Source: a virus (Duplodnaviria; Caudoviricetes). From it: 35,391 nucleotides of DNA. A model generated the notes under the pieces. That model was not told where the DNA came from, ran no database searches, and saw nothing but the letters and a program-made list of their open reading frames with translations. Position numbers and translations under genes: made by a program. Positions 6,363-25,947 of this stretch are shown in pieces. Each line of letters begins with the position of its first letter. Within the stretch, counting starts at the first letter, position 1. Location of the stretch: positions 1 to 35,391 of the IMG/VR virus record IMGVR_UViG_3300031748_000007. One strand, written 5' to 3'.

Positions 6363-8248
6363 CCGACCCGGCCCCACAGCTGAGCAGCTTGGAACTGGTG
6401 AACGCGCTGCATGGCCGCGTGACGGCGCATGGCCGCGCGCTGGACCTGCCGCCCCTCAGCGTATGGGTGCGCAAGCACCGCATCACCATCGAGCGCCGCG
6501 TGGCCGAACTCGAGACGCGCCCGTGGCTGCGCCAGCTGTACGACGATGCGCATCCGAGCATCGTGCTGCGCAAGGCCACACAGGTGGGCGGCAGCGTGTG
6601 GGCCATCCTCAGCATGTTGCAGAAGTGCGTGGAGGTGAAGAACTGGCGCGGCACGGTGTACTTCTTCCCCACCAAGACCGACGTCACCGACTTCAGCCAG
6701 ACGCGCGTGGGGCCGCTGCTGGAGGAGAACCCCTACTTGCAGACGGTGGTGGGCGACATCGACAAGACCGGCGTGCGCCAGGTGGGCGCGGGGTTCGTGT
6801 ACTTCCGCGGCATGCGCAGCAAGACCGGCATGAAGAGCGTGCCGGCGGACGGCATTGTGTTTGACGAACTCGATGAGGCAACCGACGATGCTAAGGCGAT
6901 GGCCGTGGAGCGGTTGGCCGCTTCTCCGTATAGATTCTGCTATGAGCTATCGAATCCGTCAATTCCGCAGTTCGGCATCGACTATGCCTACAGCGGCGCG
7001 CCGGACAGCGGCATCCCGGGCAGCGACCAGCGCATGTGGCACATCCGTTGCGGCACGTGCAACCGCTGGGTCAGCATGGAAAGCGAATTCCCCACCGTGC
7101 TCGGCGAGACGGATCTCAAGGTGCTGCGCCCGCGCAAGAAGAAGTACCTGACCACGTGGCGCAGGGCTTTGACGGCGGGCATCGACGTGGAGTCGATGGA
7201 CTGGTACCGCTGCTGCCCCACGTGCGGCACCGAGCTGGACCCGCAGCACGGCGAGTGGGTGGCCAGCCGCCCGACGGTCAAGAGTCCGCACGGCTACAGC
7301 CTCAGCCAGCTGTACAGCCCCACCGTGGACCCCGGCAAGCTGGTGAAGCTGTACCACAGCACGCGGCAGCCGCATCACTTCTACAACCTGAACATCGGCA
7401 TCGCCTGGATCCCCAGCGAGGACGTGCTGACCCCTGGCCACGTGCTGCGCTTCTGCGGCGACTACCCCAACGCCTACGAAGACCCCGGCCCCTGCACAAT
7501 GGGCGTAGACCAGGGCAACGCGCTGCATGTGGTCATCAGCCGGCCCGGTCCCATGCCGTTCTGGCGGCAGATTGTGCACATTGGCGTGTACCAGGACTGG
7601 GAGCAGCTGGACCTGTTGATGCAGCGGTTCTCGGTGCGCATGGCGGTGGTGGACCGCCAGCCCGAGCAGCGCAACGCCCGCAGCTTTGCGCTGCGGCATC
7701 CCAAGTGCGTGTACCTGAACACCTACAACGTACACGCCGTGGGTCGCCCCAAGTGGAACGATATTGACCTCACCGTGTCCGAGAACCGCACCGAGATCAT
7801 CGACGTCAGCCGCATGCCGTTCCGCGTGCCGCTGGGCGCAGCGCCCGACCCCAGCCCGCAGACGCCCGTGGTAACGCTGCCCGCGCGCTGCTGGGAGGTT
7901 GAGGAGTTTGCCCGCCACGTGGCCGCGCTGGTGAAGAAGCGCGTGGAGGAGGGCACGGTGCCTGGCAGCCTGCACGAGATGCAGCTGATCAAGCCGGTGC
8001 AGTTTGTGTACGTGGCCAGTGTGCCCGACCACTTTGCGCACGCCTGGGTGTACGACAACATTGCCTGGGCCTTTGACGCCAGCAGCGAAAGCCGTCCCAT
8101 CCGCGACGCCACGTTGCTGGCCGTGGGCAACTTGCGCAGCAACATCAAGCAGCTGCACATGCCCACGCTGTTGCAGAACCTGAGCCGCCGGGACAAGCAC
8201 ATGGAAGGTTACGAGACGGCCGAGGAGGATGAGAAGGAGTTGAAATGA
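6359..8248 (+). CDS. terL: Terminase large subunit, lambda gpA-like family
   Basis: gpA-type Walker A (VLRKATQVGGS), Walker B (IVFDELD), coupling motif (LSNPS), CGTC/CPTC Zn site, nuclease motifs MGVDQG and DHFAHA. Confidence 0.92.
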   Translation: MTDPAPQLSSLELVNALHGRVTAHGRALDLPPLSVWVRKHRITIERRVAELETRPWLRQLYDDAHPSIVLRKATQVGGSVWAILSMLQKCVEVKNWRGTVYFFPTKTDVTDFSQTRVGPLLEENPYLQTVVGDIDKTGVRQVGAGFVYFRGMRSKTGMKSVPADGIVFDELDEATDDAKAMAVERLAASPYRFCYELSNPSIPQFGIDYAYSGAPDSGIPGSDQRMWHIRCGTCNRWVSMESEFPTVLGETDLKVLRPRKKKYLTTWRRALTAGIDVESMDWYRCCPTCGTELDPQHGEWVASRPTVKSPHGYSLSQLYSPTVDPGKLVKLYHSTRQPHHFYNLNIGIAWIPSEDVLTPGHVLRFCGDYPNAYEDPGPCTMGVDQGNALHVVISRPGPMPFWRQIVHIGVYQDWEQLDLLMQRFSVRMAVVDRQPEQRNARSFALRHPKCVYLNTYNVHAVGRPKWNDIDLTVSENRTEIIDVSRMPFRVPLGAAPDPSPQTPVVTLPARCWEVEEFARHVAALVKKRVEEGTVPGSLHEMQLIKPVQFVYVASVPDHFAHAWVYDNIAWAFDASSESRPIRDATLLAVGNLRSNIKQLHMPTLLQNLSRRDKHMEGYETAEEDEKELK

Positions 8249-15820: not shown

Positions 15821-16111
15821 GTGATGGGAGCGACCGCACGCAAAATTGTAAAGCCGGCAGTCCGTGCCCGGTTGAAGCAGTGGTTCACGGTGCATGTGCC
15901 CACGTACCGGGCGTTCCGCCTGACCGCCATCGAGCGCGGCGACACCCTGGCCACGGCGATCCGCCTGGCGATGGAACTGTACGTCGAGCACAACGCCCGG
16001 TGGCTACGGTTCCTGGCGTCGGAGGTACCGCATCACCACATCGCGCGGCGCAGGGGCCGCGTAGACGCCAGCGAACTTGATGCATCAACCCGCGACAGCA
16101 CCGATAAGTAA
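15821..16111 (+). CDS. Small basic protein, possibly ribbon-helix-helix DNA-binding
   Basis: Strong RBS (ggaaggagaagg); QWFTVHVP..YRAFRLTAIERGDTLATAIRLAMELY fits a beta-alpha-alpha pattern. Confidence 0.6.
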   Translation: MMGATARKIVKPAVRARLKQWFTVHVPTYRAFRLTAIERGDTLATAIRLAMELYVEHNARWLRFLASEVPHHHIARRRGRVDASELDASTRDSTDK

Positions 16112-16202
16112 AAGACTTGGTGGTCGTCGGCGACCCGGTGACATTTTAGACTTAGCGGTCAACAGCTACGCGGTAAGTAGCGCGGTAGACCCCGCTAGGC
16201 CC

Positions 16203-16233
16203 TGCGGCACAAGGGCTTTGCGGCACAAGGGCT
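16203..16233. repeat. Tandem 15-bp direct repeat TGCGGCACAAGGGCT x2 (period 16)
   Basis: Exact copies at 16203-16217 and 16219-16233, ~50 bp upstream of a promoter. Confidence 0.85.
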
Positions 16234-16280
16234 GGCCGGTGGTGGTCTAAGTCCCCGGAATAACAGGGGTTTTTACCCCC

Positions 16281-16308
16281 TTGCCTTTGGCCAGGCAATG
16301 GCTAGAAT
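16281..16308 (+). promoter_or_regulatory. Sigma70-like promoter TTGCCT-N16-TAGAAT with an overlapping palindrome TTGCCT-N6-AGGCAA
   Basis: -35 at 16281-16286 and -10 at 16303-16308, in an AT-richer patch at the start of the long non-coding region. Confidence 0.6.
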
Positions 16309-16314
16309 ACTGGG

Positions 16315-17133
16315 TGCCACCGGCAAAGTGCCGGTGGGGCAGGGCTGGCCCGGTGGGCTGGCAGAAAGGCAGGTAGTTGGGAAAGCGATCAACGGTTGCA
16401 TACGGTTGGGCCTGTGAGCCCCGTGTCCCTCAGGAGTAGGGTACGCCAGCGGCGTACCGGCCCCTGGCGCAAAAGCCACGCGAGTAGCGCCAGGCCGACG
16501 GTAGACCGCCCGGCCCAAAACGCAGGTAGGGCACAGGGAGGCAGGGCAAGGCTAATGGCTGAACCCAACCGGCGGGCGACCCGCACGGTGCGCGCACAGG
16601 CGCACCGGGGCGGTGCATCGGACCCGGCCACCCCATAGGCTGTAGTTCAGGGGGGAATGGCGACAAGGCGAAAACGGACACCCGTGTGTGCTGCATTTGG
16701 TATCGGCGCAGGGCGAGCCCCAGGTGACAGCGGGGCGCTGCGCGGCGTAGACCCAAGGCGGGCCGGGTGGTGGAACCTAGTAATGCCCAAAGATGAGTGA
16801 GAAGTCGAAATTCCGGCCATGACTCAGAGTCAGCCCAAGCCCGCGTGTAACTGGCGCGGCATACGGGCTGCGCGGTGCGGCCTGGCCCGGTGTGCAACGT
16901 TGCACACCGGGCTGTGACCACACCAACCCCTGGTCCTTACAAAGACGCGGCGCGAGCCGCACAGGGCGTTCAAGACTGACGCAGGACGGTGGCGAAACCT
17001 TTGTTGAGTAGCCGCCCCTGCTAGTGGCACGCTGCGGGCTGACCCCCCAGCAGCGGTAGACCCAGCACCAGACACCGAGCGACCCAGCGGGGGTTGCCCG
17101 CACCCCTGAGTCATTACGTGCGAGGCCGGAATC
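16315..17133 (+). ncRNA. Putative large structured non-coding RNA (~820 nt), with its 3' end defined by hammerhead HH1
   Basis: No credible ORF. Perfect helices: 16317-25/16329-37, 16403-10/16564-71, 16440-47/16451-58, 16463-70/16487-94, 16586-93/16600-07, 16622-29/16761-68, 16829-36/17036-43, plus a 28-nt palindrome at 16885-16912. Confidence 0.55.
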
Positions 17134-17170
17134 TTCGGGGGCTGACCGCCCCGGACTGATGAGACAGGTC
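16804..17170 (+). ncRNA. Type II hammerhead ribozyme HH1 with a 278-nt insert in stem III; predicted cleavage after AUC 17133
   Basis: GUC(16804-06), GAAA, then UUCCGGCC pairing with GGCCGGAA(17124-31), UC, stem I UUC(g)GGGGC/GCCCCGGA, CUGAUGA(17156-62), GAC. The stem III extension AUGACUCAG(16819-27) pairs with CUGAGUCAU(17106-14). The 3' tail GGUC(17167-70) can pair with loop I GACC(17144-47) as a pseudoknot. Confidence 0.8.
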
Positions 17171-17188
17171 GAAAGGTGGTGACACTAC

Positions 17189-17287
17189 ATGCTCACGATC
17201 GTGGGTGCGTACCTTGGCGAAATGCTGTTCGTGTACGCGCTGTACAAACTGGCCAGCCGGCCCGTGCCTGCAAAGGCGGGCCGCTGA
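17189..17287 (+). CDS. 32-aa hydrophobic membrane peptide MLTIVGAYLGEMLFVYALYKLASRPVPAKAGR
   Basis: RBS-like gaaaggtggtga; lies between HH1 and HH2; hydrophobic segment followed by a basic tail; below the ORF-track size cutoff. Confidence 0.55.
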   Translation: MLTIVGAYLGEMLFVYALYKLASRPVPAKAGR

Positions 17288-17303
17288 CCGCGTTGACCCT
17301 GAA

Positions 17304-17378
17304 TGCCGATAACGGCGGGCGCGGGAGACCCCGCCGTTGCCGTGGTGGTGGCCCCCCACGGCCTGATGAGGCAAGCCC
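17304..17378 (+). ncRNA. Type II hammerhead ribozyme HH2 (GAUAA core variant); predicted cleavage after GUU 17338
   Basis: UGCC, GAUAA, CGGCGGG/CCCGCCG, UU, GCCGUGG/CCACGGC, CUGAUGA(17363-69), GGCA, AGCCC. Confidence 0.75.
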
Positions 17379-17424
17379 GACCAGGCAATGCCGCCTGGCG
17401 CACCCGAAGCGTCTGGAGATTCAG

Positions 17425-17652
17425 ATGACCCGCACTACTGTTCGCGGCAGTCGCCGCCTTGTCCGTACCCGTACCGAGTTGGCCCACACCAGCGGCACTA
17501 TGCGCGCCAAGGTGTTGGGTTTCGTTCCGCGTGGCCGTCGTGGCGCAACTTACGCGTCGGTTATCGCCAGCGCCCGTAAGGCTCGCATTCCCCGGCCTTA
17601 CTGCAAGGTCAGCAAGCTGATCGCTGGCGGCATGCTGCGGTACGCTGCGTGA
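17425..17652 (+). CDS. Small basic protein, paralog 1 (75 aa, putative winged-helix-like nucleic-acid binder)
   Basis: RBS ggag; MTRTTVRGSRRLVRTRTELAHTSGTMRAKVLGFVPRG...KVSKLIAGGMLRYAA; clearly homologous to 17779 and 18155. Confidence 0.85.
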   Translation: MTRTTVRGSRRLVRTRTELAHTSGTMRAKVLGFVPRGRRGATYASVIASARKARIPRPYCKVSKLIAGGMLRYAA

Positions 17653-17655
17653 CCA

Positions 17656-17724
17656 GCCGAAACGGCGCACCCGCGTGCGCCGTCGCCAGGGCGGTGGCAC
17701 CGCCTGGCCTGATGAGGCAAGCCC
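17656..17724 (+). ncRNA. Type II hammerhead ribozyme HH3 (canonical core); predicted cleavage after GUC 17684
   Basis: GCC, GAAA(17659-62), CGGCGCAC/GUGCGCCG, UC, GCCAGG/CCUGGC, CUGAUGA(17709-15), GGC, AAGCCC. All core nucleotides and three stems are present. Confidence 0.92.
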
Positions 17725-17778
17725 ACGGTGGGGACTGGCCCGCCGCGCACCCGAAGCGATTCTCCAAAGGGGGATCAA

Positions 17779-18006
17779 ATGTCAAAGGTTGTTCGCAAGG
17801 CCGACAAGCGCCTGGTCCGTACAGGCACCAAGCTGGCCCACACGGGCACGCTGCGTTCGACGGTCCTGGGGTTCGTTCCGGCGGGCCGTGGCGCGATGCA
17901 CAGCGCCGTGGTCGCCAAGACCCACAAGGCCGGCATCAAGTACCCGGCACAGAAAATCCACAAGCTGATTCTCAGCGGTGTGCTGCGGTACGCGAAGTCC
18001 GCGTGA
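17779..18006 (+). CDS. Small basic protein, paralog 2 (75 aa)
   Basis: RBS aaaggggg; MSKVVRKADKRLVRTGTKLAHTGTLRSTVLGFVPAG...KIHKLILSGVLRYAKSA. Confidence 0.85.
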   Translation: MSKVVRKADKRLVRTGTKLAHTGTLRSTVLGFVPAGRGAMHSAVVAKTHKAGIKYPAQKIHKLILSGVLRYAKSA

Positions 18007-18084
18007 ACCGAAACGGCGGGCCGCAAACCGTAGACCCGCCGTCGTCAGGGTGGTGGCACCCCCTGGCCCGATGACGGTAAGCCC
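18007..18084 (+). ncRNA. Type II hammerhead ribozyme HH4 (CCGAUGA plus extra C variant); predicted cleavage after GUC 18043
   Basis: ACC, GAAA(18010-13), CGGCGGG/CCCGCCG, UC, GUCAGGG/CCCUGGC, CCGAUGA(18068-74), C, GGU, AAGCCC. Confidence 0.7.
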
Positions 18085-18154
18085 CGACGCGCATGGTGCG
18101 CGCCGGCATACACAGGCACTGCGGTGGGACAGCCGCCGTGCTGTAGGAGGTACC

Positions 18155-18520
18155 ATGTCCGATACCAAGAGCACCGCGAAGACGACTGCCGCAAAGGCCG
18201 AGGCCCCCAAGGCCAAGGTCAGCAAGGCCAACAAGGCCACCAAGGGCAGCCGCAAGGCCAAGGTCAGCCGCAAGCACGACAAGGACTTCGCCCGCAAGGT
18301 TGCGGCAACCCGCAAGGCCAACTTCGGCAAGAGCGTCGCCCTCGGCGATCGTAACGCCGAAGTCGCTGGCGACCGCAAAGCGATCGTGAAGCTGGTGCCC
18401 ACCAAGGGCAAGATCGCGTACAGTGACCTGACCGCCAAGGCCAGCGAGAAGGACATCAGCCGCCCGAGCGGCAAGGTCCGCAAGCTGGTCGAGCGCGGCG
18501 TGCTGCGTTTCGTCAGCTAG
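18155..18520 (+). CDS. Basic protein, paralog 3, with a histone H1-like Lys/Ala-rich N-tail (121 aa)
   Basis: RBS aggagg; KAKVSK repeats, then DRKAIVKLVPTKGKIAYSDL...KVRKLVERGVLRFVS. Confidence 0.88.
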   Translation: MSDTKSTAKTTAAKAEAPKAKVSKANKATKGSRKAKVSRKHDKDFARKVAATRKANFGKSVALGDRNAEVAGDRKAIVKLVPTKGKIAYSDLTAKASEKDISRPSGKVRKLVERGVLRFVS

Positions 18521-24785: not shown

Positions 24786-25028
24786 TTGGCAAAGAAACGG
24801 CAAGTGCTCCAAGTGCATGACGGCGATGTTGCAGTCATGCGCACAGGCAACGGTTCCATAAGCGTGTTCTTTCACGCTGTTGGGATCAACGTCGTGAGTG
24901 ACGAGCAAGTGCCTGGCACCGCGATGGTCATGCGCCCTGGTCCTGAGGCAATCGAAGAGATACCGGGGCGGGTGGTGGCGGTGTGTTTCAGCCCCATCAC
25001 CAAGGAGAAAAGAAATGTCAAACCGTAA
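24786..25028 (+). CDS. Hypothetical protein (TTG start)
   Basis: RBS aagggggtga; fills the gap before ardC. Confidence 0.6.
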   Translation: MAKKRQVLQVHDGDVAVMRTGNGSISVFFHAVGINVVSDEQVPGTAMVMRPGPEAIEEIPGRVVAVCFSPITKEKRNVKP

Positions 25029-25947
25029 GGCATACGAACAGATCACGGAGCGCGTGCTGGCCCTGTTGAAGACCGGCACCGTGCCGTGGCACAAGCCGTG
25101 GAGCGGTGGTGCAGCGGCCATGCCCCGCAACCTGATGCGCGGCAGGCCGTATCGCGGCATCAACCTGTGGCTGCTGATCATGGCAGCCATGGACAAGGGG
25201 TACGAGCATCCGTACTGGTTGACCTTCCGCCAGGCCCGGATGCTCGGTGGCCACGTGAAGAAGGGTGAGCATGGCACGGCCATAACCTTTTGGAAGCGTG
25301 GCTCGCGACGCGTAGACCCGGACCCGGACGATGAGGACGATGCAGCCACCGAGCGCAAGTACCTGCTGGTGCGCTTCTACACCGTGTTCAACGTCGCGCA
25401 GTGTGAAGGGCTGCGCGCGTCGCGGCTGCCGGTGGAGGCACCGGGGCTTGGTGAGGCGGAGCGCATTGCTGCCGCCGAGGCGATTGTGGCCGGCTACAAG
25501 GCCGCGCCCACCATCACCAACGGCGGGGGACGTGCGTGCTACACCCCGAAGACGGACGTGGTGGCCATGCCTGCGTTCAAAACCTTCGAGTCCGGTGCTG
25601 AATACTACAGCACGCTGTTCCATGAGTTGACGCACAGCACCGGGCACCCCACGCGGCTGAACCGCGCGGGTATTGCGGACATCAAGCCGTTCGGCACCGA
25701 AGACTACAGCAAGGAAGAACTGGTGGCCGAATTCGGCGCGACGTTCCTGTGCGGCATGGCTGGCATTGAGAACCGCACGGTCAACAACAGTGCCGCGTAC
25801 CTGCGGCACTGGGCCGAGCGGCTGCGTGCCGACACTACCCTGGTGCTGAGCGCCGCAAGCCAGGCACAGGCGGCAGCCGACCACATTCTCGGGGTCGAGC
25901 CTGCTGCGGCTAACGAGAATTCCGATAGCGACGAGGACGCGGCGTAG
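25015..25947 (+). CDS. ardC: ArdC-like antirestriction ssDNA-binding protein (DUF1738 plus zincin-like domain)
   Basis: GTVPWHKPW, YRGINLWLL, WLTFRQA, VKKGEHG, YTVFNVAQ, YYSTLFHELTHSTGH..RLNR, YSKEELVAE, SAAYLRHW. Confidence 0.93.
   Translation: MSNRKAYEQITERVLALLKTGTVPWHKPWSGGAAAMPRNLMRGRPYRGINLWLLIMAAMDKGYEHPYWLTFRQARMLGGHVKKGEHGTAITFWKRGSRRVDPDPDDEDDAATERKYLLVRFYTVFNVAQCEGLRASRLPVEAPGLGEAERIAAAEAIVAGYKAAPTITNGGGRACYTPKTDVVAMPAFKTFESGAEYYSTLFHELTHSTGHPTRLNRAGIADIKPFGTEDYSKEELVAEFGATFLCGMAGIENRTVNNSAAYLRHWAERLRADTTLVLSAASQAQAAADHILGVEPAAANENSDSDEDAA

Follow-up and report, generated by a model that had tools for sequence, protein, structure and literature searches.

A hammerhead array among small phage genes

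The stretch of DNA analysed here (the window; 35,391 nt) is the whole of the linear IMG/VR record IMGVR_UViG_3300031748_000007, a virus of the class Caudoviricetes with a G+C content of 65.6% and an estimated completeness of 42%. Its 46 proteins include, by Pfam and PHROG matches, a terminase, helicases, a primase and an ArdC anti-restriction protein, and a long same-strand run of small genes begins at 16.1 kb. Within this run lie four type II hammerhead ribozyme motifs (HH1 to HH4), all on the plus strand and each followed by a single open reading frame (ORF) for a short peptide (P1) or for one of three basic proteins (P2 to P4; Table 1). An initial annotation had described the locus as an operon in which a ribozyme precedes every gene and the transcript cuts itself into separate messages.

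Table 1. Features of the hammerhead locus (window coordinates)
Feature	Position	Strand	Description
Sigma70-like promoter candidate	16281..16308	+	-35, 16-nt spacer, -10; 9/12 matches
Non-coding leader upstream of HH1	16315..16803	+	start inferred from the promoter
HH1	16804..17170	+	type II, canonical core, AUC site, predicted cut after 17133; z -3.93
HH1 loop III insert	16828..17105	+	about 280-290 nt, multibranched; helix span 321 nt; no Rfam family
P1	17189..17287	+	32-aa peptide, hydrophobic then basic; weak ribosome-binding site
HH2	17305..17378	+	type II, U13a insertion, GUU site, predicted cut after 17338
P2	17425..17652	+	75-aa basic protein, predicted winged-helix-like fold
HH3	17656..17724	+	canonical type II, GUC site, predicted cut after 17684
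P3	17779..18006	+	75-aa P2 paralog, 55% identity
HH4	18007..18084	+	type II fold, U4C plus extra C after A9, GUC site, predicted cut after 18043
P4	18155..18520	+	121-aa paralog, Lys/Ala-rich N-terminal extension; 27% identity to P2, 16 invariant columns

A descriptor of the type II fold (stem II-GAAA-stem III-UH-stem I-CUGANGA-stem II) was run over the 35-kb window and returned exactly four native sites, against no match in 40 dinucleotide shuffles in each of four settings. Under its strict form the descriptor recovers HH1 and HH3; relaxing it brings in HH2 and HH4 together with two cross-paired hybrids of neighbours. The four folds, their cut positions and the resulting fragments of 205, 346 and 359 nt are thus recovered as first described, and the stem I arms originally quoted for HH2 to HH4 are present and pair. 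The Rfam search that the initial annotation had recommended matched all four to Hammerhead_II (RF02276; curated cut-off 37 bits) at 42.9 bits for HH3, 32.1 for HH4, 28.4 for HH2 and 20.8 for HH1 (3′ half only). No other ribozyme family was found in the window by Rfam at E ≤ 1, and weak rows for mir-9193, Prion_pknot and JUMPstart, all below cut-off, were rejected.

All four motifs have three fully paired stems, with stems I and III closed and stem II open. The stem I hairpins that would head the predicted pieces are GC-rich (-12 to -16 kcal/mol). For HH3 the hammerhead fold is the minimum free energy (MFE) structure and for HH4 the hammerhead helices are the MFE of the isolated element; forcing these helices costs 0 kcal/mol over the MFE in both, 1.4 in HH2 and 3.1 in HH1. 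The CUGANGA core is present in HH1, HH2 and HH3. In HH4 it reads CCGAUGA with one extra C before stem II instead of running straight into that stem. The GAAA strand is exact in HH1, HH3 and HH4 and is GAUAA in HH2. Complementarity between loop I and the 3′ tail, at the level of sequence only, amounts to five pairs in HH1, three to four in HH2 and two in register in HH3 and HH4. The shared loop I and AAGCC tail had been taken as a sign of duplication, a point that needs correction: they equal the RF02276 consensus and match 107 viral loci, so this likeness is by itself no evidence of local duplication. As for the proposal that a ribosome-binding site and one small gene follow each motif, one ORF does follow each; the binding site of P1 is weak, and the gene calling scored none for it.

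The stretch is present in 24 sequencing runs, all soil metagenomes and each a possible source, with no RNA run listed among them, and a 101,836-base contig encodes proteins identical to P1, P3 and P4. Five related loci were collected. Four are near-identical; the other, L015, has about 88% identity and spans the region from the promoter to the first bases of HH3. Contigs from eight DNA runs yielded none that covers the whole stretch and no diverged HH3 or HH4, and the HH2/HH3 sequence pattern had no match in the genomes searched. Neither a close cultured phage nor a host emerged from GTDB genomes, phage records or terminase matches, the last all below 60% identity (23-27% among the 15 matches listed). 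In L015, HH2 is 91.9% identical, with all six differences in loops and with the U13a insertion and GUU site kept. The U13a insertion is treated among tolerated hammerhead variants in the part of PMC3088659 available to us. Another phage motif of the subfamily, at locus L069, also carries U13a. The two departures in HH4 suggest that this ribozyme may be slow or dead, although U4C is a known natural variant that, according to the sections of PMC3088659 at hand, considerably lowers activity in vitro and is still sufficient in vivo in a viroid ribozyme.

HH1, its stem III insert and the leader

HH1 differs from its neighbours in that long-range pairing, 9+9 pairs between 16810-16827 and 17106-17132, closes its stem III around the insert listed in Table 1. 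Comparison with L015 argues for this helix: the pair 16822/17111 changes from A-U to G-C, a compensatory change across 290 nt, while the core is kept, one stem I pair goes from U-G to U-A (one-sided, 17154) and the outer stem III is shorter by one pair lost on both sides. Over 16804-17170, substitutions affect 3.4% of the positions that are paired and 9.6% of those that are not; among the 59 pairs, as predicted from the window, none is broken and seven are gapped. Loss of core nucleotides in homologous loci had been named as an observation that would speak against the ribozymes; L015 instead keeps the cores of HH1 and HH2, with stem changes that preserve pairing. The insert itself is 83.7% identical to L015. 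It contains a perfect 28-nt palindrome (16885-16912), the centre of which is altered in L015. The idea that the insert is a relic of the coding units was dropped, as its scores are matched by 225 and by 87 of 500 shuffled sequences.

HH1 lies in a region of 1,077 nt (16112-17188) with no gene called by the codon model. A 47-aa ORF at 16657 is open in L015 and uncalled by this model, and hence was not counted as a gene. The leader upstream of HH1 (16315-16803) is 90.6% identical to L015, compared with 85.4% for the upstream gene, and 16725-16816 is identical in this 88% relative. Folding of this leader does not surpass that of shuffled sequences (z -0.06), and of 68 window-predicted pairs two show double-sided and one a one-sided kept change, with two broken. 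Two hairpins (16464-16494 and 16991-17016) carry a GAA/AGUA internal loop that by eye is loop-E-like; the first shows a compensatory change (16475/16481) in L015, where the second occurs twice (about 940-965 and 1090-1115). Homologs of the leader or insert were not found in 50,697 phage records, and viral contigs held only a near-identical copy. It is likely that HH1 doubles as a 3′-end trimmer of a structured leader.

Upstream, the promoter from which the initial annotation had the transcript start does exist as a site, and both hexamers are identical in L015 next to three changes in the spacer and further changes in the bases downstream. Immediately before the promoter region lies a 95-aa gene (15824-16111) that by eye resembles a small DNA-binding regulator; Pfam and PHROG gave no convincing family match for it.

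Paralogous genes, duplication and a recurrent heptamer

The three basic proteins are alignable, in agreement with the paralogy first claimed, and contain 18 (P2), 16 (P3) and 33 (P4) lysine and arginine residues. The ratio of nonsynonymous to synonymous polymorphism (pN/pS) of P2 is 0.16, 0.06 and 0.39 against L015, L016 and L017, and that of P1 is 0.12 against L015 (few sites); both genes are under purifying selection. P1 has a best 19-aa hydropathy of 1.55, belongs to a seven-member cluster and has no Pfam or PHROG match. The P2 structural model, built from three sequences (pLDDT 79.9), shows a strand-helix-helix-helix-strand order. Its best VIA match among 48,161 chains has a Z of 6.3, with none at 8 or above, and many winged-helix domains score between 4.3 and 6.1, including the MCM C-terminus, RPA32C and linker histone H1.8. 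Foldseek gave no match at E ≤ 0.001 and Atlas scores stayed below 0.9. These matches are middling; winged-helix-like folds are tentatively predicted for P2 to P4, and the proteins may bind nucleic acids. The family is narrow, with three relevant representatives among 1.84 billion sequences, confined to the phage group at hand. Two long matches were repeat-rich and rejected as spurious, no member was found among longer proteins (weak evidence), and tblastn gave no match in GTDB genomes and, for P0034, none in viral contigs. No terminator-like site was found after P4.

The duplicated unit proposed by the initial annotation, a ribozyme plus its gene, is clear for HH2/P2 and HH3/P3, which are alike across ribozyme, leader and coding sequence, with a leader score reached by none of 500 shuffles. 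For HH4/P4 it holds in part: the protein is related and stem III is shared with HH2 (1 of 500 shuffles), but the leader is not detectably related to the others (48 and 86 of 500). For HH1 and the peptide it is not supported. Ordinary tandem duplication at the DNA level, with a ribozyme and a predicted winged-helix gene as the unit, is the likely way in which the array expanded. L015 has an extra 112-aa gene (1405-1743 of that locus), which follows the peptide, precedes HH2 and is not headed by a ribozyme, and minority contigs in four of eight runs diverge from the window sequence at the same junction, 17290; the array therefore gains genes without ribozymes. The product of the extra gene has a Cys-rich C-terminus and no PHROG match. 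One ribozyme per gene thus describes the four motif and ORF pairs of the window, and neither this gene nor those from 18623 onward, which have no ribozyme.

The heptamer GTAGACC occurs 19 times on the plus strand against about 2 expected. Eighteen copies lie between 16185 and 34204, in the small-gene arm, and one at 7505; 11 of the 18 are intergenic in an arm that is 23% non-coding, and seven are in called genes. It is found in loop III of HH4, in the HH1 insert (17056) and, in L015 and the minority contigs, in loop III of HH2, but neither in HH3 nor in the window allele of HH2. A near copy heads the extra gene of L015 and some copies overlap a TAG stop. Among 126 other hammerhead motifs (see below) none has it in stem III, and a primase-based search for relatives gave a single weak non-self locus (L020) without enrichment of the motif. 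GTAGACC could mark the junctions of cassettes, serve as an operator with a set orientation or be an RNA-binding site, and may act at the DNA or the RNA level. The same arm holds the ArdC-type gene (25015-25947).

Proposed self-segmentation and its relation to known systems

We put at about 65% the probability that the hammerheads cut an early phage transcript into a leader, three single-gene RNAs and a downstream polycistronic RNA, a reading built on sequence and predicted structure. An early RNA starting at the 16281 promoter would be cut during its synthesis, giving a non-coding leader of about 820 nt, the three single-gene pieces and a polycistronic remainder that starts 111 nt before P4, its first gene. 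Cutting would be graded, fast at HH3, active at HH1 and HH2, and slow or decaying at HH4. Each piece would start with a stem I hairpin and end with a stem III hairpin, and would therefore be insulated from its neighbours and follow its own decay schedule, most likely a slower one. RNase E is slowed by 5′-OH ends. Hammerhead cleavage leaves these, together with 2′,3′-cyclic phosphate ends (PMC6765202). Cutting does not alter the predicted accessibility of the ribosome sites, which speaks for segmentation and against a translation switch. An activation of P1 in the manner of type I toxins was set aside for the same reason and because no minus-strand promoter was found.

Several observations weigh against this reading. 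Only HH3 passes the Rfam cut-off, and the promoter site by itself is at chance level (1 found, 0.6 expected). In the fold of the whole 856-nt leader the window sequence can prefer other partners, with 9 of 162 pairs broken. The long stem III of HH1 has a probability above 0.7 in 10 of 10 L015 folds compared with 6 of 10 folds of the window, where upstream leader sequence competes, and in context folding does not favour the outer pairs of its stems I and II. Covariation comes from one diverged relative, L015, and no such relative covers HH4, whose two core departures are in combination unique among 130 motifs. The ribozyme-less gene of L015 breaks the pattern, and glmS mRNA, once it has cleaved itself, is degraded and not stabilised, as the accessible portion of PMC6765202 reports.

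It is unlikely, though to be taken seriously, that only some motifs are live, the duplicates being decaying passengers of gene duplication, with the RNA cut once or twice. The core changes of HH4 (U4C, extra C) and HH2 (U13a, GUU), their sub-threshold Rfam scores and the considerably lowered in vitro activity of U4C all point this way. However, the six differences of HH2 in L015 are confined to loops, the HH1 core is intact in both loci, the stems of all four motifs pair fully, and the viroid precedent suggests that even U4C can suffice. A shut-off timer, in which faster decay of the cut pieces confines synthesis of the peptide and the earliest basic proteins to a brief burst, is a clearly unlikely alternative. 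The glmS case favours it, as does the suggestion in the available text of PMC6765202 that processing can shift stability either way. The sign of the effect would depend on the nucleases of the host, for which the genome searches gave no match. Pieces bounded by a GC-rich stem I hairpin and a stem III hairpin argue for the opposite sign, and one ribozyme kept per duplicated gene would suit independent messages better than bulk decay.

Improbable, in our view, is the proposal that the main product is the leader RNA of about 820 nt, with GUAGACC in loop III letting a phage protein, perhaps one of P2 to P4, gate cleavage. The long region without a coding ORF, its conservation above that of the upstream gene, the compensatory changes at 16822/17111 and 16475/16481, and the number, intergenic bias and loop III positions of the heptamer are all in its favour. 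Yet folding of the upstream leader is no better than in shuffled sequences, and it has no Rfam match or homolog beyond the present phage group; the motif is missing from HH3 and the window HH2, sits in genes in seven cases and may act on DNA. An extended version, in which HH1 is a hammerhead fused to an uncatalogued large phage RNA that it trims and releases, and GUAGACC is a binding site that lets the predicted winged-helix proteins gate a self-regulating array, seems quite improbable. It is highly improbable that the unit RNAs re-ligate to small coding circles and that the repeats arose by RNA-based copying in retrozyme fashion: the 346-nt piece can rebuild stem II completely from its two ends (3 of 3 pairs, against 2 of 3 in each of the other two pieces), but common descent already predicts matching arms, spliced or circular products of such clusters were sought and not found according to the consulted sections of PMC3088659, and no reverse transcriptase is among the 46 proteins of this incomplete record.

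To place the array, we surveyed 107 viral loci matching the RF02276 loop, core and tail pattern, 80 of them at least 1,500 nt long; nine loci from a first DNA pattern had no Rfam match and were dropped. In 100 of the 107 a complete type II hammerhead fold forms at the anchor, giving 130 distinct motifs (four from a copy of the present virus) in 67 groups, 24 of which have at least two motifs. As 23 of these belong to other viruses, and six hold 6-8 motifs within about 5 kb, arrays are ordinary. Those larger arrays (L062 and L080 with eight motifs; L060, L063 and L082 with seven; L066 with six) are mostly spaced at 230-770 nt and adjoin unrelated small genes. A stem III spanning at least 60 nt, under a test requiring a closing helix of at least 8 pairs and allowing up to 450 nt, was seen in none of the 126 other motifs. 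BLASTP-detectable paralogy among downstream genes, taken by a crude ORF pick that misses some genes, occurred in none of the 23 other arrays. The U4C-plus-insertion core was seen once in 130 motifs, in a survey where core variants are under-counted because anchors lacking a canonical core could not match the pattern. What is rare here is therefore the long conserved HH1 insert and the duplicated unit of ribozyme and gene.

The locus offers a natural series of ribozymes with graded core changes before paralogous genes, including the U4C and A9 insertion double variant. A long stem III form like that of HH1 escapes standard covariance searches; if HH1 is active, long-insert phage hammerheads would be under-counted and may mark large non-coding RNAs. 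Why phages use ribozymes to cut their own transcripts has been asked since 2011, and better test cases for this exist than an uncultured phage for which no host was found. The role of hammerheads in bacteria is called largely elusive in the portion of PMC6765202 at hand.

Among known systems, RF02276 shares the topology, core, loop I and tail consensus, with HH3 above its cut-off; HH1 differs in being split by an insert of about 290 nt, and HH2 and HH4 in their core changes. The discontinuous hammerhead of rodents is found in Clec2 mRNAs, with its insert in stem I, whereas that of HH1 is in stem III. It too is assembled over a very large loop that has been suggested as a control handle, but, as far as the source available to us describes it, it lies in a mammalian 3′ untranslated region and removes the poly(A) signal, while HH1 is a phage type II motif ending a 5′ leader. 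A retrozyme monomer is non-coding and lies between tandem hammerheads; since the monomers here encode proteins with pN/pS of 0.06-0.39, the array does not fit a retrozyme-like element. In VIPR ribozyme-vrRNA arrays (bioRxiv 10.64898/2026.04.26.720920), as far as the accessible text goes, phage hammerheads likewise release unit RNAs, but the units are non-coding guide RNAs with GGY/NN repeats that work with a RAMP protein, in contrast to protein-coding units under purifying selection. The longest GGY/NN runs in the four downstream segments are 1, 1, 1 and 2 (3 and 4 in the leader parts), which does not fit a VIPR array, and Pfam found no RAMP-type Vipr protein among the 46 proteins of the 42% complete record.

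The closest parallel is found in the clusters of Perreault (2011; PMC3088659) in Clostridium scindens, Azorhizobium caulinodans and Agrobacterium tumefaciens, cited here from the parts of that paper available to us. There, too, several closely set same-strand hammerheads flank single small prophage genes, and processing of long transcripts into mRNAs of single-gene length was proposed; cleavage of such tandem clusters was shown in vitro for three and in E. coli for one. The ribozymes there are type II with a loop I/3′-tail pseudoknot, for which the present motifs show complementarity in sequence, and an anti-restriction gene lies nearby, ardA there and ArdC here. The flanked genes are called 'not constant' in the accessible sections, which mention no paralogy and describe no long stem III insert, whereas the present array has three paralogs, one clear duplicate unit and the HH1 insert. 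The literature searched, with most subscription journals outside its coverage, likewise contained no phage hammerhead whose stem III holds a long insert and no duplicated units of ribozyme and gene. Self-segmentation, as first proposed for this locus, thus stands as its best reading and not as a new system, since Perreault (2011) had already proposed it and tested it for such clusters. The array is a genuine member of an arrangement known since 2011.

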